DNA of 64,000 nt from Patescibacteria group bacterium. Its GTDB lineage: Bacteria > Patescibacteriota > Microgenomatia > UBA1400 > PJMF01. Below are positions 633 to 59,735 of the stretch, one piece after another. Location: the NCBI GenBank assembly GCA_023382875.1, contig JAHDXH010000002.1, positions 69,724-133,723 on the forward strand, in the 5' to 3' direction. The translations under genes were made by a program, and so were the position numbers. Numbering within the stretch: the stretch's first letter is position 1; every line of letters starts with the position of its first letter. The notes below the pieces were generated by a model. The model was given only the letters and a program-made list of their open reading frames with translations, was not told the origin of the DNA and searched no databases.

Positions 633-3458
633 TTATGCTAGCTTTAATCTTTCACCTTTTGCAAGTTTAGTTTTGGTTTTTTCTTCAATCGCTTGTTGCC
701 ATGCACTTGGCCACTCTGGACATTCAACTGTAACAATTTTGTTGACATCTAATCCAGCTTCTTTTCTTAAACTCTGAATAGAGCGCATTAGTTCTCTGGC
801 CTCACCCTCAGCTTTTAATTCTGGAGATAAATTGAAGTCGAGGTTGATAGAAATTTCTCCATCTTCGTTTTGCCAAACCACATCTTTGACATTGAGTTCA
901 CTCATTAATAACTCTTTGAGGTGAGAAAACTCTGCTGGCTGTGGGCCGGTCACCGTCAACAATGACAATGGTTGTCTTACTCTGACTCCCTGATCTCTCC
1001 TAGCACTATGGGTTAGCTCAGTAACTTTTTGGATTGTTTCCATTTGTTTGGTGAGTGATTCGTTTTTTAGTTGAGCATACGAGCTAAACTCTGGCCAATT
1101 GGTGTGATGAATAGAAGTTGTTTCATCTGTCATGCTTTGGTGTAAAGTTTCACTAAAGAATGGAGTAAATGGCGCATAAAGTTGAGCTAGAGTGTATAGG
1201 GTGTGTCCTAAAACTTGGCCAGCTTCTTTATTATCTTTTAATCTCTCGCGGGACAATCTTAAGTACCAATTAGACATATCAGCTATAAAATCGATCAACA
1301 AACGGCTAGATCTAACTAAATCATAATTGTTCATGTTGGTTGTAACTTCTTCAATCAAAGTAGCTAATCTAGCCAATAACCATTGATCCAAAATATGTTT
1401 TGGCTTAGCTGGCACGGCTTTGAAATCTAAACTTTGATCAGCAAAGCTTTGGTAGAAGCTGAAAACATTCCACCAAATTACAAAAACTTTGCGACGTAGG
1501 TCGGCCACTTCTTTTTCTGAAAAATTAAGATTTTCCGCTTTTAAAACTGGGGAGCTAGACATGTATAAGCGCAAACTATCTGCACCGTATTTATTGATCA
1601 CAACCGCAGGATCTGGATAGTTCATCAAGCGCTTGCTCATTTTTTTGCCATCTTCAGCTAAAACAATTCCGTTGACGATGACGTTTTTGAAGGCAGTGGA
1701 ATTTTTAATACCGCCAGCAATGACGTGTAAGTAATAAAACCAAGCTCTAGTTTGGTCAACACCTTCGCCGATGAACTCAGCAGGGAAGTTTTGCTCAAAA
1801 GTATCTTTGTTTTCAAAAGGATAGTGAGCTTGACCATAGGGCATAGATCCAGAGTCAAACCAAGTATCGATGACGTCAGGAACACGCTTCATTGTTTTGC
1901 CACACTTTTGGCATGGCATGGTAACTTTATCAACGATATGTTTGTGAAGATCAGTTACTTTTACACCAGAATCATTTTCAAGTTCGCTAACTGATCCATA
2001 AACTTTACTTTCACCACATTCACATTTCCAAATTGGAATGACGCTAGCCCAAAATCTTTGTCTAGAAATTGACCAATCTTTAGCACCTTTTAGCCAATTG
2101 CCCCAGCGGCCTGTTTTAATATGGTCAGGAGACCAATTAATATCTTCGGCTAATTTTAAGAGCTTATCTTTGATTTTAGTAACTGCTACAAAATAACTAC
2201 CTGTAGCATAATTAAGTAGTGGGGTGTCACATCGCCAGCAGTGTGGATAGGAGTGAGTGACTTTGAGTTTGCTCCACAATGAATCATGGTGTGCTAGATA
2301 TTTAATGATTTCAATGTCGGTTTGTTGCGGATTGTCTTTTGGCTTGACTTCTAGATCGGCAAAGTCAGTAACTTTGCTGACAAAGCGACCATTCATACCA
2401 ACATGTTGGATTAATTCAACGTTTTCAACTTTACCAACTTTGTAGTCGTCTTCACCAAAGCCAGGGGCGATGTGCACCACGCCAGTGCCATCTTCGCTGG
2501 AGACAAACTCAGCTCCAACCACACGGAAAGCATTAGCGGTGCCTTTGTAATATGGGAAAAGTGGCTCATAGTTTAGGTCAACCAAATTTTCTCCAGTAAG
2601 AGTTTTGATAACTTCAATCGCGTTTTGACCTTTGACAAATTTCATTCTTTCTTCGGCTGCTAAGTAGAAGTTTTCTTCATCGGCTTTTTTGAAGAGTACG
2701 TATTTCATTTTTGGATTAACCGCGAGCAAGAAGTTGCCTGGTAATGTCCATGGAGTAGTGGTCCAAGCCAAAACAAAAGTTGGTTTATCCAAATTAAGTT
2801 TTTCTTTGGCGTTGGTAACTTGAAATTTTGCGACGACAGAAATATCAGTGACATCTTTGTAGCCTTCGGTAACTTCAGACTGTGACAAAGTAGTTTCACA
2901 ACGAGGACAAATGTGCATGGAGCGGTGATCTTCATAAACAAGTCCATTGTCATAAAGTTCTTTAAAGACCCACCAGACTGATTCCATAAAACTTAAATCC
3001 ATGGTCTTGTAGTCATTTTCCATGTCTGCCCAGCGACCAAGTCGCTTGATCATGACTTTCCAATCACTGACGTAACTCAAAACTTTGGAGCGACAAACTT
3101 CGTTAAATTTATCCACACCCAACTCTACGATTTCTTTTTTTTGAGTGATGCCCAATTCTTTTTCAGCAATGTTTTCGATTGGTAAACCATGGCAATCCCA
3201 ACCCCATTTTCTTTCGACTCTTTTGCCGCGCATGGTCCAATAACGTGGTACTACATCTTTCATGGTACTGGCTAGTAAATGTCCATAGTGCGGCAGACCA
3301 GTAGCAAAGGGTGGTCCGTCATAAAAAACATAACCATTTTTGGGATCGCGCATTTCAATTGATTTTTCAAATGAATGATTATCTTCCCAATATTTTTGGA
3401 CTTCTTCTTCTAATTTAGAGAAGTCTGGTGTTTTGCTAAAGTCTGTTACTTTTGGCAT
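633..3458 (-). CDS. ileS: isoleucyl-tRNA synthetase, type 2 (archaeal/eukaryote-like)
   Basis: 941 aa with HYGH (PHYGHLL) and KMSKR (KMSKRLMNYPDP) class I motifs, an editing domain and an eukaryote-like C-terminal region. Stop TAA at 633-635. Confidence 0.95.
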   Translation of the reverse strand: MPKVTDFSKTPDFSKLEEEVQKYWEDNHSFEKSIEMRDPKNGYVFYDGPPFATGLPHYGHLLASTMKDVVPRYWTMRGKRVERKWGWDCHGLPIENIAEKELGITQKKEIVELGVDKFNEVCRSKVLSYVSDWKVMIKRLGRWADMENDYKTMDLSFMESVWWVFKELYDNGLVYEDHRSMHICPRCETTLSQSEVTEGYKDVTDISVVAKFQVTNAKEKLNLDKPTFVLAWTTTPWTLPGNFLLAVNPKMKYVLFKKADEENFYLAAEERMKFVKGQNAIEVIKTLTGENLVDLNYEPLFPYYKGTANAFRVVGAEFVSSEDGTGVVHIAPGFGEDDYKVGKVENVELIQHVGMNGRFVSKVTDFADLEVKPKDNPQQTDIEIIKYLAHHDSLWSKLKVTHSYPHCWRCDTPLLNYATGSYFVAVTKIKDKLLKLAEDINWSPDHIKTGRWGNWLKGAKDWSISRQRFWASVIPIWKCECGESKVYGSVSELENDSGVKVTDLHKHIVDKVTMPCQKCGKTMKRVPDVIDTWFDSGSMPYGQAHYPFENKDTFEQNFPAEFIGEGVDQTRAWFYYLHVIAGGIKNSTAFKNVIVNGIVLAEDGKKMSKRLMNYPDPAVVINKYGADSLRLYMSSSPVLKAENLNFSEKEVADLRRKVFVIWWNVFSFYQSFADQSLDFKAVPAKPKHILDQWLLARLATLIEEVTTNMNNYDLVRSSRLLIDFIADMSNWYLRLSRERLKDNKEAGQVLGHTLYTLAQLYAPFTPFFSETLHQSMTDETTSIHHTNWPEFSSYAQLKNESLTKQMETIQKVTELTHSARRDQGVRVRQPLSLLTVTGPQPAEFSHLKELLMSELNVKDVVWQNEDGEISINLDFNLSPELKAEGEARELMRSIQSLRKEAGLDVNKIVTVECPEWPSAWQQAIEEKTKTKLAKGERLKLA

Positions 3459-3480: not shown

Positions 3481-3660
3481 AATAAAAAAATCCCTTGCTC
3501 AACACGAAATTCATGTTGACCAAGGGACCTTCTTTTTGAGGTGGTGCCACCCTAATTTTTTACTTATTCCTGCGATTACGGGCTTACCCGCAAAGTTCTA
3601 CTAAGCTGTTCGCCGTTCTTCTTTGACCTTACTCGTTGATAGCGAGTTCAATCGGTGTTA
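3481..3660 (-). promoter_or_regulatory. T-box riboswitch-like leader of ileS (Ile specifier candidate) with intrinsic terminator/antiterminator
   Basis: Minus-strand leader contains AAAUUAGGGUGGCACCACCUC, which matches the T-box consensus AAUUAGGGUGGNACCGCG. It is followed by the hairpin GGUCCCUUGG...CAAGGGA plus UUUUUUU, ending about 24 nt before the ileS ATG. An upstream GCUAUCAACGAGUAAGG carries AUC followed by A, a plausible Ile specifier, and AGUA. A minus-strand extended -10 TGCTATAAT sits at plus coordinates 3666-3674. Confidence 0.6.
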
Positions 3661-3693
3661 TAGGAATTATAGCACAGTGGATAGAGACAATTT

Positions 3694-4983
3694 TTATTGT
3701 CTTAAGAAGGCAGGAATTTCGAATTCTTCGCCAAAATCATCAGATTGATCGGTGGATTGACCAGAAGATTTTGGTTTTTGATCTTCTTGGTCATCTTTTT
3801 TTGATTGATTGAAGCTTTGGCTGGAAACAAAAGGACTGGTGGGTTTTGAGGTGTTAGTGGGATTGTTTTCACCGCTCATGGTCGGTTGAACAAAGCCTGT
3901 TGGAGCACGATCAATCTTTGGTGGTTCGGTTGGCTTGGAAGTGAAGGTAGCAGGGTTGTAACCCAAGCGACGATTAGCATCTTGAGTGAAAGCGCCAAAG
4001 AATGGTCGTTTGGCTGTGCCGTAGCCACTGTTTTCAAAACCGGTGGCGATAACAGAAATTTTGATGTTTGAACCCATTTCTTCGTTGATAGTAGCACCAA
4101 AAATAATGTTTGCGTCTGGATCAGCAGCGTTAGCGATGATAGCGGATGCATCAGCAACTTCTGACATCGACATATCAGAACTACCAATAATGTTGTAAAG
4201 AATGCCTTTGGCACCATCGATAGAAATTTCAAGGAGTGGAGAAGAAATTGCCATGCGAGCAGCGGTGACAGCGCGATTCTCACCTGAAGCCTCGCCAATA
4301 CCCATCAAGGCAGAACCAGAGTCAAGCATGATAGTTTTGACGTCAGCAAAGTCAACATTGATAAGACCGGGGACGGTAATGAGATCAGAAATTCCTTGCA
4401 CACCTTGTCCTAAGACATTGTCGGCAAGTTTGAAAGCTTCAAGAAGGGTCACTTTGTTGTTGACCACTTCCATGAGGCGTTGGTTAGGGATAACAATCAA
4501 GGTATCGACTTTGTCTTTGAGAGCGGCAATGCCTTCTTCGGCACTTTGCATGCGTCTAACACCTTCAAACATGAATGGCTTAGTGACGACAGCGACGGTC
4601 AGAGCGCCAGACTCTTTGGCGATTTCTGCAATGACAGAAGATGCGCCTGTGCCAGTGCCACCACCCATGCCGGCTGTGATAAAGACCATGTCAGTATCAA
4701 AAACTAAATCTTTGATTTTTTCTCGTGATTCTTCAGCGGCAGCACGGCCAACTTCAGGGTCGGCACCAGAGCCTAAGCCACGAGTAAAATTATTACCAAT
4801 TTGAACTTTGGTGTCAGCTTTTGATGTGAGTAAAGCCTGGGCATCTGTATTAACGGCGATGAACTCTACACCTTTGATAGCAGCTGACTCAATCATGGAA
4901 TTGACGGCGTTGCCACCACCACCTCCAACACCAATAACTTTGATTTTGGCGAATGTGGCGTTGTTTGGTTTAACGAGTCCCAT
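3694..4983 (-). CDS. ftsZ: cell division GTPase FtsZ
   Basis: GGGTGTG tubulin signature ([17 protein letters not shown]), N-terminal [13 protein letters not shown], and a C-terminal disordered tail. Confidence 0.95.
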
Positions 4984-5078
4984 GATAGTAATTTCCGTTT
5001 ATAAAATGAATGGTAATATCTTTTACCACAAAATTGTCTCAAAGTGTATCACTGCTTTTGATCGAGTAACGAGTAGAT

Positions 5079-6410
5079 TTAAGGAATAATTGATTTAAGA
5101 ATCTTTTTGATTTTTTCACCAAAAGAGCCCATGCCGGAAAGATTGATGCTGCTAAGTCCTTTGAAGACTGAGCCAAAATCCATTGATTTTTTAGGTTCAC
5201 TGATTGCACCCTGTGCCATAGCATATTCTACCAAGCCAAGACTGGTAGCAAAAGCTGGTCTAACTAGATCGCTGGTAACTCCTTCGACTTCTCTTGGCTT
5301 GCCGACTCTGGCTGGCAAGTTGAGGGTGCGTTTGGCTGTTTCGACCATGGCGACCGTTTCAGCGCCACCACCCGCAATGACTACTCCAGCAGGAATAAGA
5401 TTGAGCAAATTATTTTTCTCAAGATCAGTCCCAATCAAAGTAAAAATTTCTTTGATTCTGGGAATCATGATGCCTTCAATGATTTTGGATCGAGCGAGTT
5501 CTTTAGTTCCTTCTTCTTCAATGCCTAGTTTTTCTAGGTCAATTTTGTCGGCAACTTTGCGACGACGGTTGAGGTCCTCTTTTGATTCTCCGGGTTTGGG
5601 TTGAGGTAATTCAAAATCTTTGCTGGATAATTTGAGTTTTAATTTTTCTGCGGATTCAAGACTAATCGAACAACCAACCGCCATGTCTTTGGTGATGTGT
5701 TTGGCTCCAACAGGAATCGAAGTGGAGTATTCAAGGCAACCCTCGACGTAAACACAAATAGTACTGCAATCAGAACCAATATCAACCACGGCTACACCCA
5801 ACTCTTTTTCTGTTTCGGTAGCAACAGCCATGGCACTAGCTAGGCCAGAAAAAACGAAACCTTTGAGTTCGATGCCAAGGTCATTAACAGCCTTGTGAGT
5901 GTTTTTAAGAGAAGTTGTTAATCCAGAAATAATGTGAGCTTCCGATTCTAGGCGGATGCCAGTCATACCAACGGGATCTTTAATGCCTAATTGAGAATCA
6001 ACTTTGAAATCTCGAGGAACAACATGGATGATTTGACGGTCGTTGGGAAGAGTGACGGCACGAGCAGCTTCAATAACTTTGTCGACATCTTCTCTGGTAA
6101 TTTCACCAGTTGGTGAAGAAACGGCGACTACGCCTTTGGAATTTTGTGAGCGAATATGAAGTCCGGACACACTAACAAAGGCTTCAGTAATTTGAACACT
6201 TGCCATTCTTTCGGCTGCGTCTAAACTTTCGGTCAAAGTGGCAGAAACCTCTTCGAGGTTGATAATGGCACTTTTTTTAATACCTCTAGATTTGACAGCG
6301 GAAAAGCCAATAATTTGGAGTTTGTGTGTTTCTTCATTAACAGTAGCCACTAACGTGACACATTTGTCTGTTCCTAAATCAATAACGGCAACTATCGGTT
6401 TTTTCGACAT
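5079..6410 (-). CDS. ftsA: cell division protein FtsA (actin-like ATPase)
   Basis: MSKKPIVAVIDLGTDKCVTLVA N-terminus, ASKHA-fold motifs (VVDIGSDCSTICVY), and position immediately upstream of ftsZ. Confidence 0.9.
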   Translation of the reverse strand: MSKKPIVAVIDLGTDKCVTLVATVNEETHKLQIIGFSAVKSRGIKKSAIINLEEVSATLTESLDAAERMASVQITEAFVSVSGLHIRSQNSKGVVAVSSPTGEITREDVDKVIEAARAVTLPNDRQIIHVVPRDFKVDSQLGIKDPVGMTGIRLESEAHIISGLTTSLKNTHKAVNDLGIELKGFVFSGLASAMAVATETEKELGVAVVDIGSDCSTICVYVEGCLEYSTSIPVGAKHITKDMAVGCSISLESAEKLKLKLSSKDFELPQPKPGESKEDLNRRRKVADKIDLEKLGIEEEGTKELARSKIIEGIMIPRIKEIFTLIGTDLEKNNLLNLIPAGVVIAGGGAETVAMVETAKRTLNLPARVGKPREVEGVTSDLVRPAFATSLGLVEYAMAQGAISEPKKSMDFGSVFKGLSSINLSGMGSFGEKIKKILKSIIP

Positions 6411-6440
6411 CTTTACTTAAGCATAACAAATAGTTGAGGT

Positions 6441-7019
6441 TTATGCCTGTGGAATTTGTTTTTCCCAGTCTTGTCCATTCCATAAACCTAAAGCTAGTTT
6501 GACAATAATGGAATATTCTTCGGTACGATCCACAAAACCCTTGGTCACAACGCCAATGGCTCCTTGCTTTTGTTTGATTGAAGGATCGGCGAAAAGTTGG
6601 CCAACTGCTGGTCCCATTTCTTCACCTGCTAATAATTTTTCAGAAATAATTTTTGGTAGTTTGAACCTTGCGCCATTGCTTTCAAATTTTTGACCAGTTT
6701 GATCGGTGACACAGGCCCAAACAGTTGACCACAATTCTTGTGGTAGGTGTTCGTAAACACCACCTTCAAGTCCAACTCCTAAGATTTGGTTTTGGTGTTT
6801 TTCAAGCTGTGCTGGCGAGAGATTTTTTATGCCGGCCAGTAAAACATTAGCGGCTCGGTTTTGGGCACCAGTTCTAGTTTCTTCATCCGTTCGTGGTTGA
6901 GCATTAATGCCACTTTCGACTTCGATGCCAATTACTTCAGCATTTGGCCAAGAATTTTGACAAGCATTTTTGACTGCATTAATTTTAACTGGGTTAGTGG
7001 AGCCAACAAAGATGATCAT
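6441..7019 (-). CDS. non-canonical purine NTP phosphatase (inosine/xanthosine triphosphatase, YjjX family)
   Basis: MIIFVGSTNPVKINAVK...VESGINAQPRTDEETRTGAQNRAANV parallels E. coli YjjX ([25 protein letters not shown]). The start is chosen at the internal M, which gives a 4-bp ATGA overlap with the sufU stop. The ORF track extends it to 7076. Confidence 0.65.
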   Translation of the reverse strand: MIIFVGSTNPVKINAVKNACQNSWPNAEVIGIEVESGINAQPRTDEETRTGAQNRAANVLLAGIKNLSPAQLEKHQNQILGVGLEGGVYEHLPQELWSTVWACVTDQTGQKFESNGARFKLPKIISEKLLAGEEMGPAVGQLFADPSIKQKQGAIGVVTKGFVDRTEEYSIIVKLALGLWNGQDWEKQIPQA

Positions 7020-7399
7020 TTTTTCTGGTTTTCGCTTAATAAGTTTTGAACGGCTGTGAGGCCAATCATCATGCATTTTAATCTTCCAGGGGCAATAGAT
7101 TCTAGGTCCAAAAGCCCTAGCATTTCCCGATGTGTCAGTTGAAGAATTCGGGTGATTGGTTTACCGATAATTTCCTGTGATAGCAAGCTCATTGCTGCCA
7201 TGCTAATACTGCAACCTTGACCAGTCCATTTTAGATCTTCCAAGACTTGTTTTTGATCATCAATTCTTAAAGTGATTTGAATCATGTCGCCACAAGACGG
7301 ATTGTACTTGGCTGTTTTTAAATGATTGCCAGTTAAGGCTCCATAGTGAGCGGGGTTTTTGGCTTCGTCTAAAATAATTTGGGTAAAAAGATCAGACAT
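7016..7399 (-). CDS. sufU: SufU/IscU-like Fe-S cluster assembly scaffold / sulfur acceptor
   Basis: Three conserved Cys contexts (NPSCGD, GQGCSIS, RLKCMM) typical of the SufU/NifU N-terminal domain. Adjacent to sufS. Confidence 0.8.
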   Translation of the reverse strand: MSDLFTQIILDEAKNPAHYGALTGNHLKTAKYNPSCGDMIQITLRIDDQKQVLEDLKWTGQGCSISMAAMSLLSQEIIGKPITRILQLTHREMLGLLDLESIAPGRLKCMMIGLTAVQNLLSENQKK

Positions 7400-51762: not shown

Positions 51763-51848
51763 CGCCGCGGTGGTGAAATGGTAGACACGCGAGACTTAAA
51801 ATCTCGTGATAGCAATATCATGCGGGTTCGAGTCCCGCCTGCGGCACC
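51763..51848 (+). tRNA. tRNA-Leu (anticodon TAA), CCA encoded
   Basis: Cloverleaf folds. 7-bp acceptor GCCGCGG/CTGCGGC with one G-T wobble. Anticodon loop CTTAAAA. Long variable arm. T-arm GCGGGTTCGAGTCCCGC. Confidence 0.9.
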
Positions 51849-51905
51849 AGTGAGAAGTTAGAGATTAAAAATTGAATTATAGCCAGCCAAATTTTTGGCA
51901 AAGAT

Positions 51906-51979
51906 CGGGGAATAGCTCAGATGGCTAGAGCGCGCGGTTTGGGACCGCGAGGCCGCAGGTTCGAGCCCTGTTTCCCCGA
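51906..51979 (+). tRNA. tRNA-Pro (anticodon TGG)
   Basis: Acceptor CGGGGAA/TTCCCCG, anticodon stem CGCGG/CCGCG with loop TTTGGGA, T-arm GCAGGTTCGAGCCCTGT. No encoded CCA. Confidence 0.9.
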
Positions 51980-51987
51980 CATAATAA

Positions 51988-52013
51988 AGAATCCAGCATT
52001 GCTGGATTTTTTA
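51988..52013 (+). terminator. intrinsic terminator after tRNA-Pro (stem ATCCAGC/GCTGGAT + T6)
   Basis: Hairpin at 51991-52007 followed by TTTTTT. Confidence 0.7.
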
Positions 52014-52117
52014 TTATCTTGGAGATAATTGTGAAAACCTTTGGTTCTGCCGGCGAGCGAGACTGGTGGCTTTGTTGCTTTGGAATCACGAAGCGCCCGC
52101 CTAATCCTTGGAAAGGG

Positions 52118-52139
52118 GAGCCCTGTTTCCCCGACATAA
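52118..52139 (+). repeat. direct repeat of tRNA-Pro(TGG) 3' end (GAGCCCTGTTTCCCCGACATAA), 155 bp downstream of the intact copy; att-like scar
   Basis: 22/22 nt identical to 51963-51984. Like the original, the copy is followed by its own hairpin and T-run. Confidence 0.8.
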
Positions 52140-52145
52140 AAAAAG

Positions 52146-52168
52146 ACAGCCTTAGGGCTGTTTTTTTA
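52146..52168 (+). terminator. second hairpin + T7 terminator following the tRNA 3' repeat
   Basis: ACAGCC-TTAG-GGCTGT followed by TTTTTTT. Confidence 0.6.
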
Positions 52169-52247
52169 TTTCTCTAGCAAAAACCTCCGCATTTGAGGGC
52201 GGAGGTTTGCTTGTGCATCAGAGCAGAGCGTGTTTGGAAATTTTTGA

Positions 52248-53030
52248 TTAAAGGTCAGGTTGTTCGGCACGGCAGTTGCGCCAGACCGGTCCCAGCGCCG
52301 CCAGACCTTCAAATTCCGTGTAGCTGGTTGAGTTGCCTACCCGAATTTGGACGGTGTAATGACCATCCATGCTGGCTTCCTGAGAAAGGGACTCACTGTT
52401 ACAGCCCAGATAGGTTGCCTGTAACATGAGGGTCGAGTGTGAGGTTTCGTATCCCGGGCCGGGAACCTCAAAAATTCTGGCAATTTTAGTGTTGCCATCA
52501 TAATTGCCCACAGCCACGTATCTATCACCCTCCCAGCGATTGCTGACGTACATGGTCGAAAATCCACCCGACTGCAACAATTCCAATTCGTCATTGGTAA
52601 TGTTGTAGGCATACAGCAGTGGATAATCGTCGGCAGTGCGAATGGCGGTAAAAACCATCCAGTCGCCCGAAATTGCGGCATTGGTGCAGACCACATCGCC
52701 TTGCTCACAGCGAGAGACGGTGTTGATTTCAAAGTCCGCATCGTCAAACTCCACCCAAGCGGCAATGCCGAGGGGGATGTTATTGCGAATGGGAACTTCG
52801 TCAACGATGATGAATGAAATATACATCCCATCAGCAGACCATGAGGGTGAAGTCGCGTTCTCTTCAAGGTCGCTGGTGACATTGAGGGTAGTTTGGCTTT
52901 GCGCTTCAACTGCCAAAATTTCACCGCTATCTTCTACGAGAAACCACGAGGGTCGAGTGTCACCGGCTTGCGCCAGTGACCCTCCAGCCAGCAGGCTGAA
53001 GAACAGGGTCAAAAAGAACAGGCGTTTCAT
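52248..53030 (-). CDS. secreted protein with PD40/TolB-like beta-propeller repeats; high-GC (~52%) island gene
   Basis: Signal peptide MKRLFFLTLFFSLLAGGSLAQA. Repeated SPSWSADGMYISF, ISGDWMVFTA and VAVGNYDGNTKIA motifs resemble PD40 blades. GC is clearly above the roughly 40% flanks. Confidence 0.45.
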   Translation of the reverse strand: MKRLFFLTLFFSLLAGGSLAQAGDTRPSWFLVEDSGEILAVEAQSQTTLNVTSDLEENATSPSWSADGMYISFIIVDEVPIRNNIPLGIAAWVEFDDADFEINTVSRCEQGDVVCTNAAISGDWMVFTAIRTADDYPLLYAYNITNDELELLQSGGFSTMYVSNRWEGDRYVAVGNYDGNTKIARIFEVPGPGYETSHSTLMLQATYLGCNSESLSQEASMDGHYTVQIRVGNSTSYTEFEGLAALGPVWRNCRAEQPDL

Positions 53031-53262
53031 AGCTTTAGGTCTCCTTGCTTAACCAATTAGCTCTACCGAATCTTTAAGTTCGGACTAATAAAAACACCAA
53101 AAAATGTTCTTATTAGTCCAAACTAAGTTATCGGCTCTGATGTTAATGTGCCTGCGAACATAAAGTTTCGCAGACCCTAACTATAACAGAAAAAAGACTA
53201 AATGTAAAGTTATAGGACGTATAATATCTGAACTTTTAAATAAATTGACTGGTAGATTTTCC

Positions 53263-53290
53263 TTGACTCATGGCAGTTTTATCCTATAAT
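53263..53290 (+). promoter_or_regulatory. near-consensus sigma70-type promoter TTGACT-16 nt-TATAAT driving the 53324 gene
   Basis: TTGACT at 53263-53268 and TATAAT at 53285-53290, with a second TTGACT at 53245-53250. Confidence 0.5.
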
Positions 53291-53323
53291 TACCTGTCCG
53301 CAAAATAGCAGAGGAGTAAGCTC

Positions 53324-53683
53324 TTGGAAATAAAAGGTACGATTGCGTTAATCGTTGACCCTCAGGATTCTTTGTTCTGGGGTGGCTGGATGGAGCATTT
53401 GCGCGAAGATGGTTGGGAAATCGCCATGTTCAAGCACCCGTCATGGATTCAGCCTGATTCAACCTCGCCGTTGCCCGAAGGGGTGATGGAAGCTAACGTG
53501 CTGATGGTGTATGGTCTGGGTGTGCAAGATTGGTGGGTTGAGGCGCTAACTGCTGCCAATAAGCCAACCGTCTATATCACTTCCATTGGTACGCCGAACC
53601 TGAAGCTCGATAAGCTGGCAGTGGTCGATGGCTTCTTCCGCTATGAGGAACTGTTGGCGGCAGTGGAGAAAGTTGCCGCCTAA
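53324..53683 (+). CDS. hypothetical protein (119 aa), high GC (~52%), no recognisable motifs
   Basis: ORF preceded by a strong promoter and followed by a bidirectional terminator. The IALIVDP N-terminus hints at a flavodoxin/receiver-like fold, but the diagnostic residues are not evident. Confidence 0.4.
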   Translation: MEIKGTIALIVDPQDSLFWGGWMEHLREDGWEIAMFKHPSWIQPDSTSPLPEGVMEANVLMVYGLGVQDWWVEALTAANKPTVYITSIGTPNLKLDKLAVVDGFFRYEELLAAVEKVAA

Positions 53684-53696
53684 CAATCACAGAAAA

Positions 53697-53725
53697 ACGA
53701 CAGGGTTCAAAGCCTGTCGTTTTTG
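53697..53725. terminator. bidirectional intrinsic terminator (stem ACGACAGG/CCTGTCGT) between convergent 53324 gene and eamA
   Basis: 8-bp stem with an 8-nt loop. T-run on the plus strand and an A-run on the 5' side that gives a U-run for the minus strand. Confidence 0.7.
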
Positions 53726-54598
53726 CTAGAGCGCGGTTGTGATAATTCCACAGACAGTGAGAATAATGCCTAAACCTTGAACTTTGTTAATTTTTTCGCT
53801 GGAAAAAACCATCGCTAAGCCGACAGTAACAATTGTGAGTGCTGAGGCAATTGGAGTGACGATAATGCCATCGCCATAAGCTTGGCCAAAGCTAGCACTT
53901 AGTACACCAATCGCTTCAAAAATACCAACTGCAGCGATCAAAGCCACAAGTTTTTTATTTGGTTTGCTGATGCTTAAAGATTGTTTTCTAAATTTGGCAA
54001 TTAAAAAAACAACGCCAATAGCGACGAGCTTAACCAAAAAACTGACCAAAATCCAATCGGTTTGTTCAACAATGAATTCATTAACTGGCCAGTAAAAAAT
54101 GCCAAAAATTACTGCAGCGATGAGAGTTTCTTTGACTCCAGTTAAAAGAGCTAGACTGCCTTTTTTCAAATCAATAAAGTTGACGCTGACTAGCAAAATG
54201 CCGAACAAAAGCAGAGCAATGGCGGGAACTTGCAATCTTGATAATTCTTGACCTCTAATGAAAAAAGAAATGGCGATCACAAATAAAACTTGAATATTGA
54301 TTGTCGCGGAGATAACAGAAACATTACCGATTTCAAAGCCTTTATAAAAAAATAAGTAGCCAACTGCATACATAATTCCACAAAAGACAGTCAGGGCCAA
54401 AAGTGGAGCGGAGATAGCGAAGCTACCAGAAACAAAAAACAAGAAAAAGCCCATTAAAAATAAGCCCGCTATTTGGGACCAAAAAAGGGTTTTGTTGTGA
54501 CCAACTTTTTCTGAAGCAGCATTGGCAAAGAAATCAGAAGTTCCCCAACCAACCATGCCGCCCAAGCCACTTAAAATGCTGAGTAAGGTTTTATCCAT
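53726..54598 (-). CDS. EamA/DMT-superfamily transporter (10 TM)
   Basis: Two EamA-like halves (GMVGWGTSDFFANAASEK...; ...GVLSASFGQAYGDG). Confidence 0.7.
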   Translation of the reverse strand: MDKTLLSILSGLGGMVGWGTSDFFANAASEKVGHNKTLFWSQIAGLFLMGFFLFFVSGSFAISAPLLALTVFCGIMYAVGYLFFYKGFEIGNVSVISATINIQVLFVIAISFFIRGQELSRLQVPAIALLLFGILLVSVNFIDLKKGSLALLTGVKETLIAAVIFGIFYWPVNEFIVEQTDWILVSFLVKLVAIGVVFLIAKFRKQSLSISKPNKKLVALIAAVGIFEAIGVLSASFGQAYGDGIIVTPIASALTIVTVGLAMVFSSEKINKVQGLGIILTVCGIITTAL

Positions 54599-54659
54599 AT
54601 TTAAATCTAACTAAGTTAGTTTAACAGATGTTTAATCATGTTAAACTAGATTTATCATT

Positions 54660-55781
54660 ATGTTCAACGAAGCACTTCCACTACCACATCATGAGTCACC
54701 AAAATTACCAAAAGTGCCAGAGGGTCACGTGGAGCTAGAACAACTCAAAGAATTACTGGAAGAACATCGAGAGGAATTGGCGCAATTAGTGGAAAGATCT
54801 AATACTTCGCCATATTTACCACAAGGAGAAAGCGGTCTGGTTGGGGAAGTAAAATTTGTGGTGGATAAAAGATTGGGCAAACAGCAGCCAGTAAGAATTA
54901 TTTCGCTAACTTTTCCTAATGGCAGTACTGCTGAGGTAGTGATGAGACCAACTCAAAGACATTTTTCTGAGTATCAAGAAAAATATGAGGCAGTTAAAAA
55001 ATATTTTCCACAACTGCTTTTGAGTTTGCCTGCACCTGATGGCGATGAGGTTTTATTTTTAGAAAAAATTACAGGTTTGGAACAAAAAACTGATGAAGCT
55101 GGTTGGTATGAATATGTTGGCCATGGTGAAAATTTCAGAAAAACTAATAGTGACTTCTTTAGAATCATGGATGAGGTTTTGGAAGCTCCACTTATTTTGA
55201 ATGATATCCAACCGCAGGAAGGTCATAATGTTTTTTTGAATTCAAAAACTGGAGAAATACAACTTTTTGATGTAGATACTTTGCTTCCATCTGATGAAAG
55301 CCATGAGTGGAAATTTATTGTTTGTGTAGGAGGCATGATTAGCTCAAGTCCTTTTGAAGGTCAATCAAATTTTAAATTGGCTTTTCAATTTGAATTGCTA
55401 AGACAATATTTGGAGAAATACTCTGAAGCTGTTTTTGAAAAAGTAGAAGAACCTCGAACTTTGCGAAGATTGGTTTATCTTAATCCAGATGATGAAATTG
55501 AAAACCCCGATCAATACTTGCGAATTTTAAAGCCAACTGACGGTGACTATGGAAATGTTTTTCGTCAATATTCTGCTGGGGGCACCAGAATGTGGAAGGT
55601 AATGAATTTCGGCAAACCATTGCCAGTAATTGCTGAGCTGCAAATGTTTTCTCGTAAAAAAATGAGATTGCGATCAGACATTAGACAAGCTGTGGAAAAT
55701 GGAGACTTTGTTGGTTTTAGAAATTGCTTGCAAAAAAATATTCAAATCATTGAAGAAGTAGAAGAGAAGGTTGAGCGCTAA
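54660..55781 (+). CDS. hypothetical protein; possible atypical protein-kinase-like fold
   Basis: LILNDIQPQEGHNVFLNSKTGEIQLFDVDT resembles an HxD..N catalytic loop followed by a DFG-like DVD. No Gly-rich loop is identifiable. Confidence 0.3.
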   Translation: MFNEALPLPHHESPKLPKVPEGHVELEQLKELLEEHREELAQLVERSNTSPYLPQGESGLVGEVKFVVDKRLGKQQPVRIISLTFPNGSTAEVVMRPTQRHFSEYQEKYEAVKKYFPQLLLSLPAPDGDEVLFLEKITGLEQKTDEAGWYEYVGHGENFRKTNSDFFRIMDEVLEAPLILNDIQPQEGHNVFLNSKTGEIQLFDVDTLLPSDESHEWKFIVCVGGMISSSPFEGQSNFKLAFQFELLRQYLEKYSEAVFEKVEEPRTLRRLVYLNPDDEIENPDQYLRILKPTDGDYGNVFRQYSAGGTRMWKVMNFGKPLPVIAELQMFSRKKMRLRSDIRQAVENGDFVGFRNCLQKNIQIIEEVEEKVER

Positions 55782-57431
55782 TTAAATTTTCTCTGCGTCT
55801 TTGGTATCGATCAGTTGTTGTGGTGTCATGAAGTAGAGATCGATCATTTTTTGCTTTTGTTCTTCGGTAAGATTTTGTAGTTTTTCTGTTCTGACCATGA
55901 TTTTGGTTTCGCGACCATCAAGTCTCTTGAGTCTTGTATATTCGCGGTCAAGTTTGGGTTTAATAGCTTCATGGAAGCCATTTTCAGAATCGGGATCGAA
56001 CAACACATAAGTTGGCGGATTATTCATGAGCATGGTTTGATAATTAGCTCTAATTTCTGGAGAACGCCACGCCCAAGGAAGATGGAAAAGTTCTTTTCCA
56101 GCAATCGGAACGTCGGCAATGATGTTGATATAGCCAGCGCCATCAGGTCCGGTTAGTAAGGTGTCAGTTGGTTCTTTGAGAACTTTAATAATGTCGGCGG
56201 TAGATTGGAAATCTCCGTAACCGATGAAGTGTTCTTCTAATTTATTTTTCTTTTCCAAAATCCACGGCGAAATTTGACCAATCAAAATTACAGGAATGAT
56301 GAAATAAATTAACATCAGCCAAGTTTTTTTGGATTTCGACCATGACCAAAGTAAGAATTGAGCAATCAACATTCCCCACGCAGCAATGAATGGGTAAAGG
56401 TGAAAGCCGGTATAGAACATGGTGGGAAAGACGAAGACACGATTGTTGAGACTTAAAACTAAGATAAAAAGTAAAAGCCATTTTGACCAGTCACTCAATT
56501 TGCTTTTGTTTGATTTGAGAGCAAAAATTACGCCCAAAACAATTAAAACATTTTGCCAAATAAAGAATTTACCCAAGCTGGTTTCAGCATGAAGGAAGGC
56601 TTGGAAAGGGTAAGTATAAGCAGTGAAGCTGTCTTGCCAAGTTTTGGCACCATGAATATCGACCACATATTTCATGACATTGCGGATACTTTCTTTGTAC
56701 CAGCCAATGGGAGAAACAATAATAAAGACGAATGATAATAAAATAATGTAAGTAGAAGCTAGAGAAATCTTTTGTTCTTTGTCTGAATACCAGGCATAAG
56801 CTAATCCAGAAATAAAAACATATGGCCAAAGCGGTGAGAGTGACATAGTGATCCAAGCTGAAGCTAGGGCAAAAAGTGCTGGATCGACCCAGGATAATTT
56901 CTTTTTTAACCCCAAGTGGTCATCGCTTTTTTGTTTAAAGATTTTTTCAATCAAAAGCCCAAGACTAAGGGCTAGGGCGGGAGCGGCTAAAGTTTCGCCT
57001 AATAAATACCAACCAAAGAATAGGTAAGAGGTACTTGCCAAAATCGCTGAGACAAATAGTCCTCGCCATCTAAATCTCCACGTCAAAACAAAAAGCCAGC
57101 TGGCCATCAAAATAAATAAAGCGACTCTAATTCTCTCTACCAATAAAAATAGAGTGTTGTAAGGAATGAGTTTGGTAATGAGGGCGCCAAGTAAAAATGG
57201 CAAGGGCTGATGATTGACTGACAGATCAGTATAGAGACCTTTATTGTATTTCCACATCATCCAGCCATTGGTGAGATGGTCGGTTTCGTCTTGGAAGTAC
57301 CACGACTGACTATGTTTCTTGAGTCCATAAAAAGTCACCGCCAAAATAACTGCCAAAACAGCGAGGGGTAAAAAATAGCTAATGATTTGGCGTAGTGAAA
57401 ACTTGCCAAATAAAATTGGACGGTCAAACAT
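55782..57431 (-). CDS. GT-C fold membrane glycosyltransferase (ArnT/PMT-like, GT39/GT83-like)
   Basis: About 12 TM helices. First-loop motif FQDETDHLTNGWMMW resembles the DE..H/Y acidic motif of GT-C enzymes. Large C-terminal periplasmic domain. Confidence 0.55.
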   Translation of the reverse strand: MFDRPILFGKFSLRQIISYFLPLAVLAVILAVTFYGLKKHSQSWYFQDETDHLTNGWMMWKYNKGLYTDLSVNHQPLPFLLGALITKLIPYNTLFLLVERIRVALFILMASWLFVLTWRFRWRGLFVSAILASTSYLFFGWYLLGETLAAPALALSLGLLIEKIFKQKSDDHLGLKKKLSWVDPALFALASAWITMSLSPLWPYVFISGLAYAWYSDKEQKISLASTYIILLSFVFIIVSPIGWYKESIRNVMKYVVDIHGAKTWQDSFTAYTYPFQAFLHAETSLGKFFIWQNVLIVLGVIFALKSNKSKLSDWSKWLLLFILVLSLNNRVFVFPTMFYTGFHLYPFIAAWGMLIAQFLLWSWSKSKKTWLMLIYFIIPVILIGQISPWILEKKNKLEEHFIGYGDFQSTADIIKVLKEPTDTLLTGPDGAGYINIIADVPIAGKELFHLPWAWRSPEIRANYQTMLMNNPPTYVLFDPDSENGFHEAIKPKLDREYTRLKRLDGRETKIMVRTEKLQNLTEEQKQKMIDLYFMTPQQLIDTKDAEKI

Positions 57432-57839
57432 TTATCGAGTTGTCTGTAGTTTGTAATGTTCTTTTTTCATGCACTCATCCATGATTACAATCATGCCTGC
57501 TTGCTCGGCTTTGGCTTTTGCTTCTGGTGCAATCACGCCTTCCTGAAGCCAGAGGATGGGTTTGATGTTGAGACTTAAAATTTCATCAACAATTTCCATG
57601 ACGGCTTCTGGTTGACGAAAAACATCAATAATGTCAATTTCTTCTGGGTTGGGAATTTGGGAAAGGCTGGCAAAAGCGGTAAGACCAAAAACTTCTTTGA
57701 TCATGGGATTAACGGGGATAATTTCAAAACCATTTTCCATTAAGTATTTGGATACACCGTGACTGGGTCGAATCGGATTATCAGAAAGACCAATGACGGC
57801 AATTCTTTTGGGAGGGTTCAAAATTTCGGCTTTCGTCAT
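57432..57839 (-). CDS. CoA-binding domain protein (YccU/COG1832 family)
   Basis: IAVIGLSDNPIRPSHGVSKYLMENGFEIIPVNP is the Rossmann CoA-binding motif. Start chosen at MTKAEIL; the ORF track extends to 57893. Confidence 0.7.
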   Translation of the reverse strand: MTKAEILNPPKRIAVIGLSDNPIRPSHGVSKYLMENGFEIIPVNPMIKEVFGLTAFASLSQIPNPEEIDIIDVFRQPEAVMEIVDEILSLNIKPILWLQEGVIAPEAKAKAEQAGMIVIMDECMKKEHYKLQTTR

Positions 57840-57950
57840 GCTGACATTTAAGCAAAAAAGCGAGGTAAGGGCAACCAGACAATAGAAGTTCAATTTTTCG
57901 AGGAGTAAAATAGCAATTTGTTGATGGATATTCTTTGAAGAATGATTAAA

Positions 57951-58023
57951 CGGAGTATAGCGCAGATGGTAGCGCGCAGCGTTCGGGACGCTGAGGCCAT
58001 CGGTTCGAGTCCGATTACTCCGA
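57951..58023 (+). tRNA. tRNA-Pro (anticodon CGG)
   Basis: Acceptor CGGAGTA/TACTCCG, anticodon stem CAGCG/CGCTG with loop TTCGGGA, T-arm ATCGGTTCGAGTCCGAT. Confidence 0.9.
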
Positions 58024-58057
58024 CAAAATTTGCCAAACTTTTTTTTATTTTAAAGCT

Positions 58058-58066
58058 TGGTATAAT
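58058..58066 (+). promoter_or_regulatory. extended -10 promoter TGGTATAAT, 13 nt upstream of tRNA-Gly
   Basis: Identical element and spacing as upstream of tRNA-Leu. Confidence 0.5.
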
Positions 58067-58078
58067 CTAATTCATCTT

Positions 58079-58150
58079 GCGGGTGTAGCTCAACGGTCAG
58101 AGCTCCAGTTTTCCAAACTGGTGACGAGGGTTCGACTCCCTTCACCCGCT
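58079..58150 (+). tRNA. tRNA-Gly (anticodon TCC)
   Basis: Acceptor GCGGGTG/CACCCGC, anticodon stem CCAGT/ACTGG with loop TTTCCAA, T-arm GAGGGTTCGACTCCCTT. Confidence 0.9.
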
Positions 58151-58201
58151 CCCAAACTGATCGATTTGCGCAATATTTCCAACAATTTAAAATGAAATTA
58201 T

Positions 58202-58855
58202 ATGTTGGCCAATCAGCTTCAATTAAATAAAGAGTTTGATCGACAAGTTGAAAATCTCCTTCAAAAGGGTTATCCAGGTTTGGCAAGTCTTAATAATGAT
58301 GATTTTTTGAACATAGTTAAGCCTTTAAAAAAAAGTTTGGAAAATTTAACGTTCGTGCTTCCTCAAATCGATTTAGATAAAGGTACTTTACCTTTTGTTA
58401 TCGTTATTAAAAGTGATTTAATTCCTTCGGAAAATATGATGGAATTAGTCGAAAAAAATGGAAGAAATGGTGTAACTATTTTGCGACCTCATTCCTCCAT
58501 AAATTTCAAAACAATTGATGAGGTAGGTTTGCCTAACAGCAATGCTTACTTACTTATAGATATTGATCGAGGTCAGGAAAATATTAATTTGCCACCCAGC
58601 GAAGCAATGAAGCTGATAAAAAATGCCTCTAGATCGCCACTGACTGTCGATGAGGGAATTGCAATTGTGACGCAATTTCCTGATTTTTTGATTAAGAACA
58701 ACTGTTTTTCTTTATTGGCTTCTAGAACTGGCAGCGACCAGCGAGTTCCGGCTATTTGGATTAATGCGAAAAAAGAACCTAACCTCGGTTGGTGTTGGGA
58801 TGGCAATCCTCATACTTGGTTGGGTTCTGCGTCTTGTAAACAAAGACTGGGTTAA
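58202..58855 (+). CDS. hypothetical protein (217 aa), no recognisable family
   Basis: ORF only. Overlaps the convergent small membrane ORF by 4 nt. Confidence 0.4.
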   Translation: MLANQLQLNKEFDRQVENLLQKGYPGLASLNNDDFLNIVKPLKKSLENLTFVLPQIDLDKGTLPFVIVIKSDLIPSENMMELVEKNGRNGVTILRPHSSINFKTIDEVGLPNSNAYLLIDIDRGQENINLPPSEAMKLIKNASRSPLTVDEGIAIVTQFPDFLIKNNCFSLLASRTGSDQRVPAIWINAKKEPNLGWCWDGNPHTWLGSASCKQRLG

Positions 58856-59166
58856 AAAACAAATTCAACTAATTTCGACACCACATCCACAGCTAGCTCG
58901 GTCCAAACTAATAAAAACAAAGCCACAATTCCTAAAATAAGCATTAGTCTATGAAAAGGATTGGCAAATTTTCTAATTGTTAGATCAATTCCTATGCCAG
59001 CGACAAATAATAATGTTCCCATGATGACAAAATCCATCACACCCCAGTTCCAACTATCGACGGTAAAGTTGCCAAGAAATGCAGCTAATAAAAGAATACT
59101 GACGACTTTACCAACTTTGAACACACTATTTTTTAGTTGATTTGATCCAGCTTTTTTTGTTTTCAT
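58852..59166 (-). CDS. small hypothetical membrane protein (3 TM)
   Basis: 104 aa and hydrophobic. Confidence 0.4.
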   Translation of the reverse strand: MKTKKAGSNQLKNSVFKVGKVVSILLLAAFLGNFTVDSWNWGVMDFVIMGTLLFVAGIGIDLTIRKFANPFHRLMLILGIVALFLLVWTELAVDVVSKLVEFVF

Positions 59167-59220
59167 ATTTAGATTTTAGTATAGCAAATCTTTGTGTAAA
59201 ATAGCCTTATACAAAAAAAT

Positions 59221-59583
59221 ATGAAAACCGAAATTCAATCTGTCGATCAATATATTGGCTCTTTTCCAGAAGAAATCCAAAAAAGGCTGGAGCAAGTGAG
59301 GGCTATCATTAAGTCTGTCGCCCCATTGGCCAAAGAAGCGATTAGTTATGGAATACCTGGTTACAAGTTTCATGGACAACTAATTTACTTTTCTGGTTTC
59401 AAAAGTCATATTGGCCTTTATCCTATGTCTGATCAAATGGTAGAAGCTATTCCTGAGGTGGCTCAGTTTAGAACTTCCAAGGGGACAGCACAGTTCAAGC
59501 ACGATCAGCCACTCCCACTCGAGCTAGTCAAAAAGATTGTCAAATTCCGTTTGGAGGAAAATTTAGCCAAGGCTAAGAGCTAG
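59221..59583 (+). CDS. DUF1801 (YdhG/YdeI-like) domain protein
   Basis: SVDQYIGSFPEEIQKRLEQVRAIIKSVAPLAKEAISYGIPGYKFHGQLIYFSGFKSHIGLYP matches the DUF1801 pattern. Confidence 0.55.
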   Translation: MKTEIQSVDQYIGSFPEEIQKRLEQVRAIIKSVAPLAKEAISYGIPGYKFHGQLIYFSGFKSHIGLYPMSDQMVEAIPEVAQFRTSKGTAQFKHDQPLPLELVKKIVKFRLEENLAKAKS

Positions 59584-59659
59584 TCTTATTTAGCTCGAGG
59601 TTGTAAAATTGCCCCTGCTAGATAGCAACCGACTTTGACGAAGACGTCAGAGACAATTG

Positions 59660-59735
59660 GCCAGAGTAACTCAGTTGGTAGAGTAGCGGTATCGTAAACC
59701 GCAAGTCGCGGGTTCGATCCCCGCCTCTGGCTCCA
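59660..59735 (+). tRNA. tRNA-Thr (anticodon CGT), CCA encoded
   Basis: Acceptor GCCAGAG/CTCTGGC, D-arm ACTCAGTTGGTAGAGT, anticodon stem GCGGT/ACCGC with loop ATCGTAA, T-arm GCGGGTTCGATCCCCGC. Confidence 0.85.

Follow-up and report, generated by a model that had tools for sequence, protein, structure and literature searches.

An ileS T-box with an ultrashort Stem I is reportedly known from Actinobacteria, through the work of Sherwood et al. in 2015. Elements of this kind from M. tuberculosis, M. smegmatis and N. farcinica (PDB 6UFG and 6UFM; "class II" in TBDB) are the comparison system for the leader discussed here. This leader lies on the minus strand of a 64,000-nucleotide (nt) stretch of DNA from a Patescibacteria group bacterium (contig JAHDXH010000002.1, positions 69,724 to 133,723), which is called the window and whose own numbering is used throughout. 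It lies at 3656-3484, in the gap upstream of ileS, the gene for isoleucyl-tRNA synthetase (IleRS).

In the ileS T-boxes of M. tuberculosis and N. farcinica, a K-turn Stem I is combined with an S-turn Stem II, Stem IIA/B, an F-box and an RAG linker (PMC10651847, PMC11297988, PMC12647780, PMC7583486). The M. tuberculosis element has a loop-linker pseudoknot of 3 base pairs (bp) and the F-box CGUCA (PMC11297988). PMC10651847 and the methods of TBDB describe a short Stem I that carries the specifier in its hairpin loop. Ultrashort Stem I has been associated with translational control, and transcriptional T-boxes are generally said to need a long Stem I with an elbow platform, for fast capture of the tRNA (PMC7583486). 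In the same account Stem III is called indispensable for binding of the tRNA 3' end. The Stem II S-turn and IIA/B pseudoknot are absent only from glycine T-boxes.

The leader in the window is a genuine T-box, conserved in relatives, of the class of ileS elements with an ultrashort Stem I. A terminator is joined to it, and Stem III is absent. With a probability of roughly 85%, it would act as a tRNA-Ile-responsive riboswitch that controls ileS by transcription attenuation. An earlier note, made from the letters of this stretch, had proposed a T-box-like leader on a type-2 ileS in a lineage resembling the candidate phyla radiation (CPR). The proposal is borne out by a conserved architecture, covariation within the helices, agreement between specifier codon and gene, and mutually exclusive helices with an asymmetry in energy. 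What is notable is the joining of a reduced anatomy to a terminator, together with the phylum, and not the type of enzyme.

Anatomy of the leader

A gap of 235 nt (3693-3459) separates ftsZ (3694-4983) from ileS, both on the minus strand. The features are listed in the direction of reading.

3666..3674, minus: extended -10 TGCTATAAT, a direct reading of the sequence
3626..3656, minus: Stem I module, backed by covariation; the leave-one-out model R2 (below) aligns all of its pairs as standard
3656-3654 / 3628-3626, minus: basal helix ACC/GGU, 3 bp, 97-100% paired
3653-3648 / 3630-3629, minus: K-turn-like internal loop GAUUGA / AA
3647-3643 / 3635-3631, minus: Stem I helix ACUCG/CGAGU, 5 bp
3642-3636, minus: apical specifier loop CUAUCAA, 7 nt
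3638..3640, minus: specifier codon AUC (Ile), followed by the conserved purine A3637; agrees with the ileS downstream
3591..3625, minus: Stem II, with conserved blocks AGUAGA and AAGAA; the Rfam T-box model RF00230 aligns AGUAG to the AGUA of Stem II
3625-3621 / 3595-3591, minus: Stem II proximal helix CAAAG/CUUUG, 5/5 pairs compensatory, 98-99% paired
3620-3616 / 3602-3596, minus: S-turn-type internal loop of Stem II, AAGAA / AGUAGAA
3571..3590, minus: Stem IIA/IIB, a compact pseudoknot with F-box, which includes CGGGUAAGCCCG at 3590-3579
3590-3588 / 3581-3579, minus: IIA CGG/CCG, 98-100% paired
G3583-C3572 and C3582-G3573, with the mismatch A3584.A3571, minus: IIB
3580-3576, minus: F-box-like CGUAA
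3554..3570, minus: single-stranded linker GGAAUAAGUAAAAAAUU, 17 nt, consisting of A, U and G only and unpaired in the fold
3565-3563, minus: RAG triplet AAG within the linker, conserved
3523..3553, minus: antiterminator AGGG-UGGCACC-ACCU...AGGU-CCCU, -5.5 kcal/mol
3553-3550 / 3526-3523, minus: antiterminator helix A1, AGGG/CCCU
3549-3543, minus: T-box bulge UGGCACC, 7 nt, UGG.ACC invariant
3542-3539 / 3530-3527, minus: antiterminator helix A2, ACCU/AGGU, closing the loop CAAAAAGA
3484..3527, minus: intrinsic terminator, with 5' arm 3527-3511, loop AUU 3510-3508, 3' arm 3507-3491 and U7 3490-3484
633..3458, minus: ileS, the proposed regulated gene, assigned to the type-2 isoleucyl-tRNA synthetases, 941 amino acids, ATG at 3458

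Judging from the extended -10, which would be part of an active promoter, transcription is predicted to start at about 3659-3657, 1-3 nt ahead of the basal helix. No match to a -35 hexamer is seen upstream of the leader. In three related leaders (L001, L004 and L141), TGnTATAAT is likewise found, 9-17 nt ahead of the basal helix.

The basal helix itself takes several forms in the family (AGC/GCU, ACC/GGU, AUC/GAU, GGC/GCC and AAC/GUU). The specifier codon matches the amino acid of the gene and is followed by a purine, as expected of a T-box. The leader does not have the long Stem I of class I T-boxes, in which the specifier loop is internal and an interdigitated T-loop platform at the distal end binds the tRNA elbow. 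The S-turn of Stem II is retained, as is the IIA/B pseudoknot with its F-box; the distal hairpin of Stem II is short and variable. IIB is the least well supported helix: two of its pairs are invariant, and the third is A-U in five, G-C in three and unpaired in four of 12 sequences.

In the switch, the 7-nt UGGNACC bulge lies between two antiterminator helices. A1 and A2 are 96-100% paired in the family, with compensatory changes in 7-8 of their 8 pairs. The alternative helix makes use of the antiterminator's 3' half as well: UCCCU (3527-3523) is common to the antiterminator 3' strands and the terminator 5' arm. The terminator stem has 7 + 9 bp around a G.G mismatch, and its core hairpin is worth -24.6 kcal/mol. 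The ATG follows 25 nt after U7, and the post-terminator sequence, AUUAGCAAUUACAUAAAAUUUAAAU, contains no Shine-Dalgarno sequence between U7 and the ATG.

Much of the description in the earlier note holds. The 235-nt gap, the extended -10, the short GC hairpin CGGGUAAGCCCG and the long hairpin with U7 are all present on the minus strand. The specifier that it placed in GCUAUCAACGAGUAAGG is AUC at 3640-3638 with A3637, and AUC is invariant in the family alignments. A specifier hairpin can be folded and covaries, although AUC sits in the terminal loop of a 5-bp hairpin and not in an internal loop. The mutual exclusivity of antiterminator and terminator is likewise upheld by the shared UCCCU and by the two energies. 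Other details need correction. The AGUA inside CGAGUAAGG, taken for an S-turn element, is not conserved in relatives; the conserved element is AGUAGAA (3602-3596), in the 3' strand of Stem II. The T-box sequence AAAUUAGGGUGGCACCACC, which ends at 3541, is present, but the overlap with the terminator that was claimed for it is not, as only the antiterminator 3' strands share UCCCU. The distance from U7 to the start codon had been given as 24 nt and is 25 nt.

Conservation and covariation

The comparison set consists of the 80 closest ileS loci in the reference genome collection, all of which are from metagenome-assembled genomes of Patescibacteria. In about half of these CPR loci, ileS is preceded by UGGUACC at a distance of 40-260 nt, and AGUAGA lies another 50-130 nt upstream. 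Twelve leaders were cut at homologous ends and aligned with MAFFT, blind to structure. When a hand-written structure is laid over this alignment, 93.3% of cells are paired, compared with 72.8% in shuffles (0 of 500 as high) and 26-51% in slid controls, and both-sided changes occur in 19 of 26 pairs. MAFFT alone misregistered Stem I, in which the linker is 2 or 3 nt long, and covariance models fixed the registration. In the resulting model alignment of 44 sequences, 94.0% of cells are paired and compensatory changes are found in 22 of 23 pairs; none of 500 shuffles reaches any of five measures. Covariation backs six helices upstream of the terminator hairpin.

A covariance model built from the 12-leader alignment (R1) finds the element in 39 of the 80 CPR loci, always upstream of ileS, and once only in the window. 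For the window leader, a leave-one-out model (R2), built without the window, gives 97.9 bits and an E of 2.8e-22, and every one of the 23 pairs is standard. The next match of R2 in the 64 kb has an E of 1.4.

The specifier is equally stable. In 36 of 40 CPR members, a hairpin of 3-8 bp presents AUC in an apical loop of 7-8 nt, and in all but one of these 36, which have a clear hairpin, AUC is followed by A. AUC is invariant in two alignments (A3 and A7). A strong hairpin that begins inside the A1 3' strand and is followed by U5-8 occurs in 21 of the 40, including all six closest relatives of the window, the count being the product of a crude finder. In these six relatives the equivalent hairpins reach -18 to -26 kcal/mol, and U6-8 comes directly after the stem; Shine-Dalgarno sequences lie further downstream and are unpaired.

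A subgroup of five leaders has a different terminator topology (L010:2878-2950, L071:2855-2925, L019:1283-1362, L045:2862-2942 and L076:2480-2575). Here no hairpin competing with the antiterminator stands before the U7-8. Instead, the segment before U7-8 complements sequence just 5' of A1 (for example GCACCA...UGGUGU). In the predicted fold, A1, the bulge and A2 are nested in one long hairpin of -18 to -32 kcal/mol that abuts the U-run. In such a topology, RAG-linker docking may compete with the formation of the basal helix.

The apical loop of A2 is also variable. The closest relative, L001 (2906-2928), is without Stem III and has an extra hairpin (GUCACUAAUUAGUGAC) in this loop, and long A2 loops occur in L037 and L008 too. 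Insertions in A2 are known from translational T-boxes (PMC7583486).

The same architecture extends beyond the CPR loci. A scan of metagenomes, by a pattern anchored on the S-turn and IIA and then by the CPR-built model, recovered 55 leaders. Among them are high-GC (60-72%) leaders with a GCCAUCAC loop upstream of ileS, which the CPR-built model scores at 30-67 bits. None of these has a U-run, and they show the known actinobacterial translational layout. The CPR and actinobacterial elements therefore form one architectural class. The ileS genes behind the high-GC leaders encode enzymes 40-55% identical to that of the window. The earlier note had thought it remarkable that a T-box should accompany a type-2 IleRS, a view that this pairing in leaders of the same architecture does not favour.

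Detection by general models

At its gathering threshold (93 bits), RF00230 reports no T-box anywhere in the window. When its filters are relaxed, the model matches over its full length at 3660-3520 (minus strand), with 33.9 bits and an E of 4.5e-6 locally, or 8.1e-4 over the whole window against all 4227 families. This is the sole T-box-like hit in the window. The alignment is good over Stem II with its AGUA, IIA with the F-box, and the T-box sequence AAUUAGGGUGGNACC with the antiterminator. Ten nt stand in for 86 Stem I positions of the model, and the Stem III positions 164-182 are deleted. The low score is explained by the loss of Stem III and of the greater part of Stem I. The relatives likewise score low (34-39 bits). 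The Rfam search proposed in the earlier note thus falls short of the threshold and yet yields a full-length match. A sub-threshold score was considered as a refutation and rejected, given a full-length permissive match in which Stem I and Stem III are deleted.

The leader folds with a z-score of -4.9; this value and the matches of RF00230 and R2 go far beyond chance. A simple scan for promoters and terminators detected nothing, because there is no -35 hexamer and because a G.G mismatch interrupts the terminator stem.

Proposed mechanism

The proposed mechanism follows the T-box paradigm. It is from this paradigm that the promoter, the binding of tRNA, the distinction between charged and uncharged tRNA, and termination itself are inferred. 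Transcription would start just downstream of the extended -10. The nascent RNA would then fold into a compact decoding module, in which a K-turn-based, 5-bp Stem I presents AUC in its apical 7-nt loop. Stem I would dock against the S-turn Stem II, with the IIA/IIB pseudoknot as a hinge, and AUC would be paired by the anticodon GAU of tRNA-Ile.

The outcome would depend on the state of the tRNA. If the tRNA is uncharged, its 3' NCCA end would pair with the UGGC of the bulge and stabilise the weak A1/A2 antiterminator, allowing RNA polymerase to read through into ileS. If the tRNA is charged or absent, the far more stable terminator would capture 3530-3523, and transcription would stop at U7.

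The missing Stem III

No Stem III hairpin is present in the window, and both the fold and the RF00230 alignment indicate that the 17-nt linker cannot form one. The purines that flank Stem III are retained, as AAG at 3565-3563 followed by A-rich sequence. The spacing from IIA to A1 is 25 nt in the window, compared with 33-101 nt in members that have a Stem III hairpin. A spacing of 28 nt or less without Stem III is found in 14 of 40 CPR members, spread over divergent lineages. In the literature searched, which did not reach Sherwood 2015 and Vitreschak 2008, no description of natural T-boxes without Stem III was found.

Other members have large insertions at this site. In L002 (2745-2905), a strongly structured insertion of about 160 nt (-44 kcal/mol) occupies the position of Stem III. 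An arrangement of tandem T-boxes was considered for this locus and rejected in favour of a single T-box with the insertion. Insertions of 89-101 nt at the Stem III site occur in L036, L041, L044 and L075, some of them from short tandem repeats (AGCUAAGA and similar). As the site ranges from absent to more than 150 nt, Stem III is extremely labile in the CPR ileS T-box family.

The UGGC bulge and tRNA-Ile

Among the 40 CPR members, UGGC in the bulge is unique to the window, and 38 of the other 39 have UGGU. One of the UGGU members, L006, reads UGGUAAC and not UGGUACC. In L034 the bulge is left unaligned by the model, and UGGUACC is seen directly in its sequence.

The variable base, C at window position 3546, is also C in the metagenomic leader L141 (1703-1709). 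L141 has the same ACC/GGU basal helix and the same GGAAUAAG as the window; it keeps all other elements and has Stem III. Because L141 also has UGGC, this bulge is a lineage trait and not an error. The window leader is identical in a second public contig, from GCA_048499515.1, which matches at 100% over 6.4 kb. This contig may come from the same population or data and is a weak confirmation of UGGC; L141 is the better support.

By base pairing, UGGC predicts either a tRNA-Ile with G73 or a tolerated C.A mismatch, and the UGGU of the other CPR members would predict A73. Should the first alternative be true, this lineage would have a tRNA-Ile with G73, in place of the near-universal A73.

Alternative explanations

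Several observations weigh against a tRNA-Ile-responsive attenuator. The RF00230 score is far below the curated threshold (33.9 against 93 bits). Stem III is absent though described as indispensable, and so is the distal Stem I platform that transcriptional T-boxes are described as needing (both PMC7583486). The third IIB pair is A.A in the window. The closing pair of A2 is A-U, not the G.U wobble described as a steric sensor (PMC7583486). With the usual A73 of tRNA-Ile, UGGC gives a C.A mismatch at the fourth acceptor pair. Finally, no tRNA-Ile gene was found in the window, in 60 related loci or in about 10 kb beyond either end of the window (in GCA_048499515.1). Some of these observations would suit a relic, decaying or constitutively off or on, in which tRNA sensing has been lost and the hairpin sets a basal readthrough into ileS: UGGC is an outlier among the 40 members, Stem III and the G.U sensor pair are lacking, and IIB has its A.A. 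Every helix is nevertheless intact in the window copy, which scores 97.9 bits against a model from other genomes. Stem III has been lost in 14 of 40 members across divergent lineages, unlike a one-off decay, and UGGC returns in the related but distinct L141 with all other elements kept. Moreover, a terminator of -24.6 kcal/mol stands before an essential single-copy gene, so that some antitermination mechanism must work. A relic is therefore improbable.

The form of the output speaks against a translational T-box like the actinobacterial ileS elements, with the long hairpin as a sequestrator of the ribosome binding site and the U-run incidental. In favour of such a reading, the leader shares its decoding module with the translational class, and reviews link ultrashort Stem I to translational control. 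However, the hairpin (3527-3491) ends 33 nt before the ATG and holds neither a Shine-Dalgarno sequence nor the start codon, and the 25 nt between U7 and the ATG have no Shine-Dalgarno sequence. Hairpin and U7 have the textbook form of an intrinsic terminator. The closest relatives keep their U6-8 after the stem, with the Shine-Dalgarno sequence unpaired downstream, whereas no U-run is found in the high-GC leaders of translational type. Translational control is accordingly very improbable here. The earlier note had itself named another possibility, that hairpin and U-run are simply the ftsZ terminator. On this reading ileS would be expressed by readthrough or from another promoter, and the T-box motifs would be due to chance. 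The RF00230 score below the gathering threshold and the empty scans for promoter and terminator would fit this. Yet the leader stands before ileS in 39 of 80 CPR genomes, and ftsZ is the upstream neighbour in only six of the 80 ileS loci; the leader therefore belongs to ileS. Six covarying helices lie upstream of the hairpin, R2 finds the leader with an E of 2.8e-22, and an extended -10 lies between ftsZ and the leader. The family search, covariation, gene context and leave-one-out model effectively refute an ftsZ terminator.

The gene and its neighbours

The IleRS encoded here is of type 2. It matches TIGR00392 with 869.6 bits, resembles MupA/MupB and carries a DUF5915 domain at its C-terminus. 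It scores about 700-750 bits against eukaryotic cytoplasmic IleRS, T. thermophilus IleRS (1ile) and P. megaterium IleRS2 (8c8u), but only about 300 bits against type-1 enzymes. Its nearest PDB entries are type-2 and eukaryotic IleRS.

The gene order DUF84/ITPase-like NTPase, ftsA, ftsZ, (T-box) ileS (window 3694-7076) is found elsewhere only in the six closest relatives. The genes that precede this leader in other CPR genomes are unrelated.

The window and its flanks also contain other genes. Five tRNA genes lie within 8 kb (window 51764-59735), for Leu-UAA, Pro-UGG, Pro-CGG, Gly-UCC and Thr-CGU, with no tRNA-Ile among them. A tRNA-Gly(CCC) gene is found on the source contig about 1.4 kb beyond the window start (L203:14804-14875), and beyond the 5' end come queA and tgt, two queuosine genes (L203:15719-18011). 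Just past the 3' end is a mevalonate-pathway cluster (L202:15353-21197), with genes for HMG-CoA reductase, an HMG-CoA synthase-like protein, a thiolase and two GHMP kinases, and a diphosphomevalonate decarboxylase-like gene. In GCA_048499515.1 the sequence of the window and its flanks is divided between two contigs; the window thus belongs to a more contiguous assembly of the same organism.

Significance

These leaders extend T-box regulation to Patescibacteria, ultrasmall bacteria of the CPR, and the curated Rfam model overlooks them. In the literature searched, no relevant report was found that combines T-boxes with Patescibacteria or the candidate phyla radiation. Earlier mentions of terminator-type ultrashort leaders may exist, for example in Sherwood 2015 or Vitreschak 2008. 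The chances are about even that CPR hold an unrecognised and widespread minimal T-box class, with a core of about 134 nt, a co-transcriptional termination decision made without an elbow platform and, in about one third of members, the window leader among them, no Stem III.

If such leaders are functional, neither the platform nor Stem III would be strictly required for kinetic capture of tRNA or for sensing of aminoacylation. The RAG linker alone, or something specific to the tRNA or the RNA polymerase of CPR, would then suffice. The CPR leaders would be natural counter-examples both to the need for an elbow platform and to the indispensability of Stem III. They fit and strengthen the picture of ileS as the ancestral or most widely retained T-box target outside Firmicutes.

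The overall T-box logic is ordinary, and the interest for riboswitch specialists is moderate to high. With its 134 nt, such a natural sensing core would lend itself to use as a minimal scaffold in structural studies and engineering. Regulation in CPR is almost unknown, and the leader is a concrete regulatory RNA on an essential gene. It may also serve as a native switch for CPR genetic tools, a need stated in PMC11665869.

Comparison with known T-boxes

The leader shares most of its anatomy with the actinobacterial class. Both have ileS as the target, AUC as the specifier, and a very short Stem I with a basal K-turn and an apical specifier loop, and both lack an elbow-binding distal platform. 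They also share the S-turn Stem II, the IIA/IIB pseudoknot with F-box, the RAG linker and the 7-nt UGGNACC bulge. The defining layout of ultrashort Stem I, in which the K-turn is kept, the hairpin loop is the specifier loop, and Stem II and IIA/B are retained, is also that of the window leader. It can be followed segment by segment: ACC-GAUUGA-ACUCG-CUAUCAA-CGAGU-AA-GGU in the window matches GGC-GUUGAU-CCGG-CCAUCAC-CGGG-GA-GCC in the GC-rich leader L158. M. tuberculosis IleRS, which lies behind the best-studied reduced T-box, is also of the eukaryote-like type. The short-Stem-I (class II) model of TBDB had been run on Actinobacteria only.

The differences from this class concern mainly the output. 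The leader ends in a hairpin of -24.6 kcal/mol with U7, not in a Shine-Dalgarno sequestrator, and no Shine-Dalgarno-sequestering platform is found in it. Stem III, which is coaxially stacked in the M. tuberculosis structure, is absent here. The bulge is UGGC instead of UGGU, the sensing part measures 134 nt instead of 166 nt, and the phylum is Patescibacteria instead of Actinobacteria.

The output resembles that of class I transcriptional T-boxes (RF00230; for instance B. subtilis tyrS and S. aureus ileS). Like these, the leader combines a specifier codon with a UGGN bulge, and its antiterminator and terminator compete for a shared strand that is followed by a U-run. Unlike these, it has no internal specifier loop, no AG bay and no Stem III, and it also lacks the distal loop from which the interdigitated T-loop platform (IDTM) is made.

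Another example of a naturally reduced T-box is glyQS. It too is a natural minimal variant, and it works by transcription attenuation. The reduction has taken the opposite course in the two cases: glyQS lacks Stem II and IIA/B and keeps a long Stem I with the elbow platform as well as Stem III, while the window element keeps Stem II and IIA/B and has lost the platform and Stem III.

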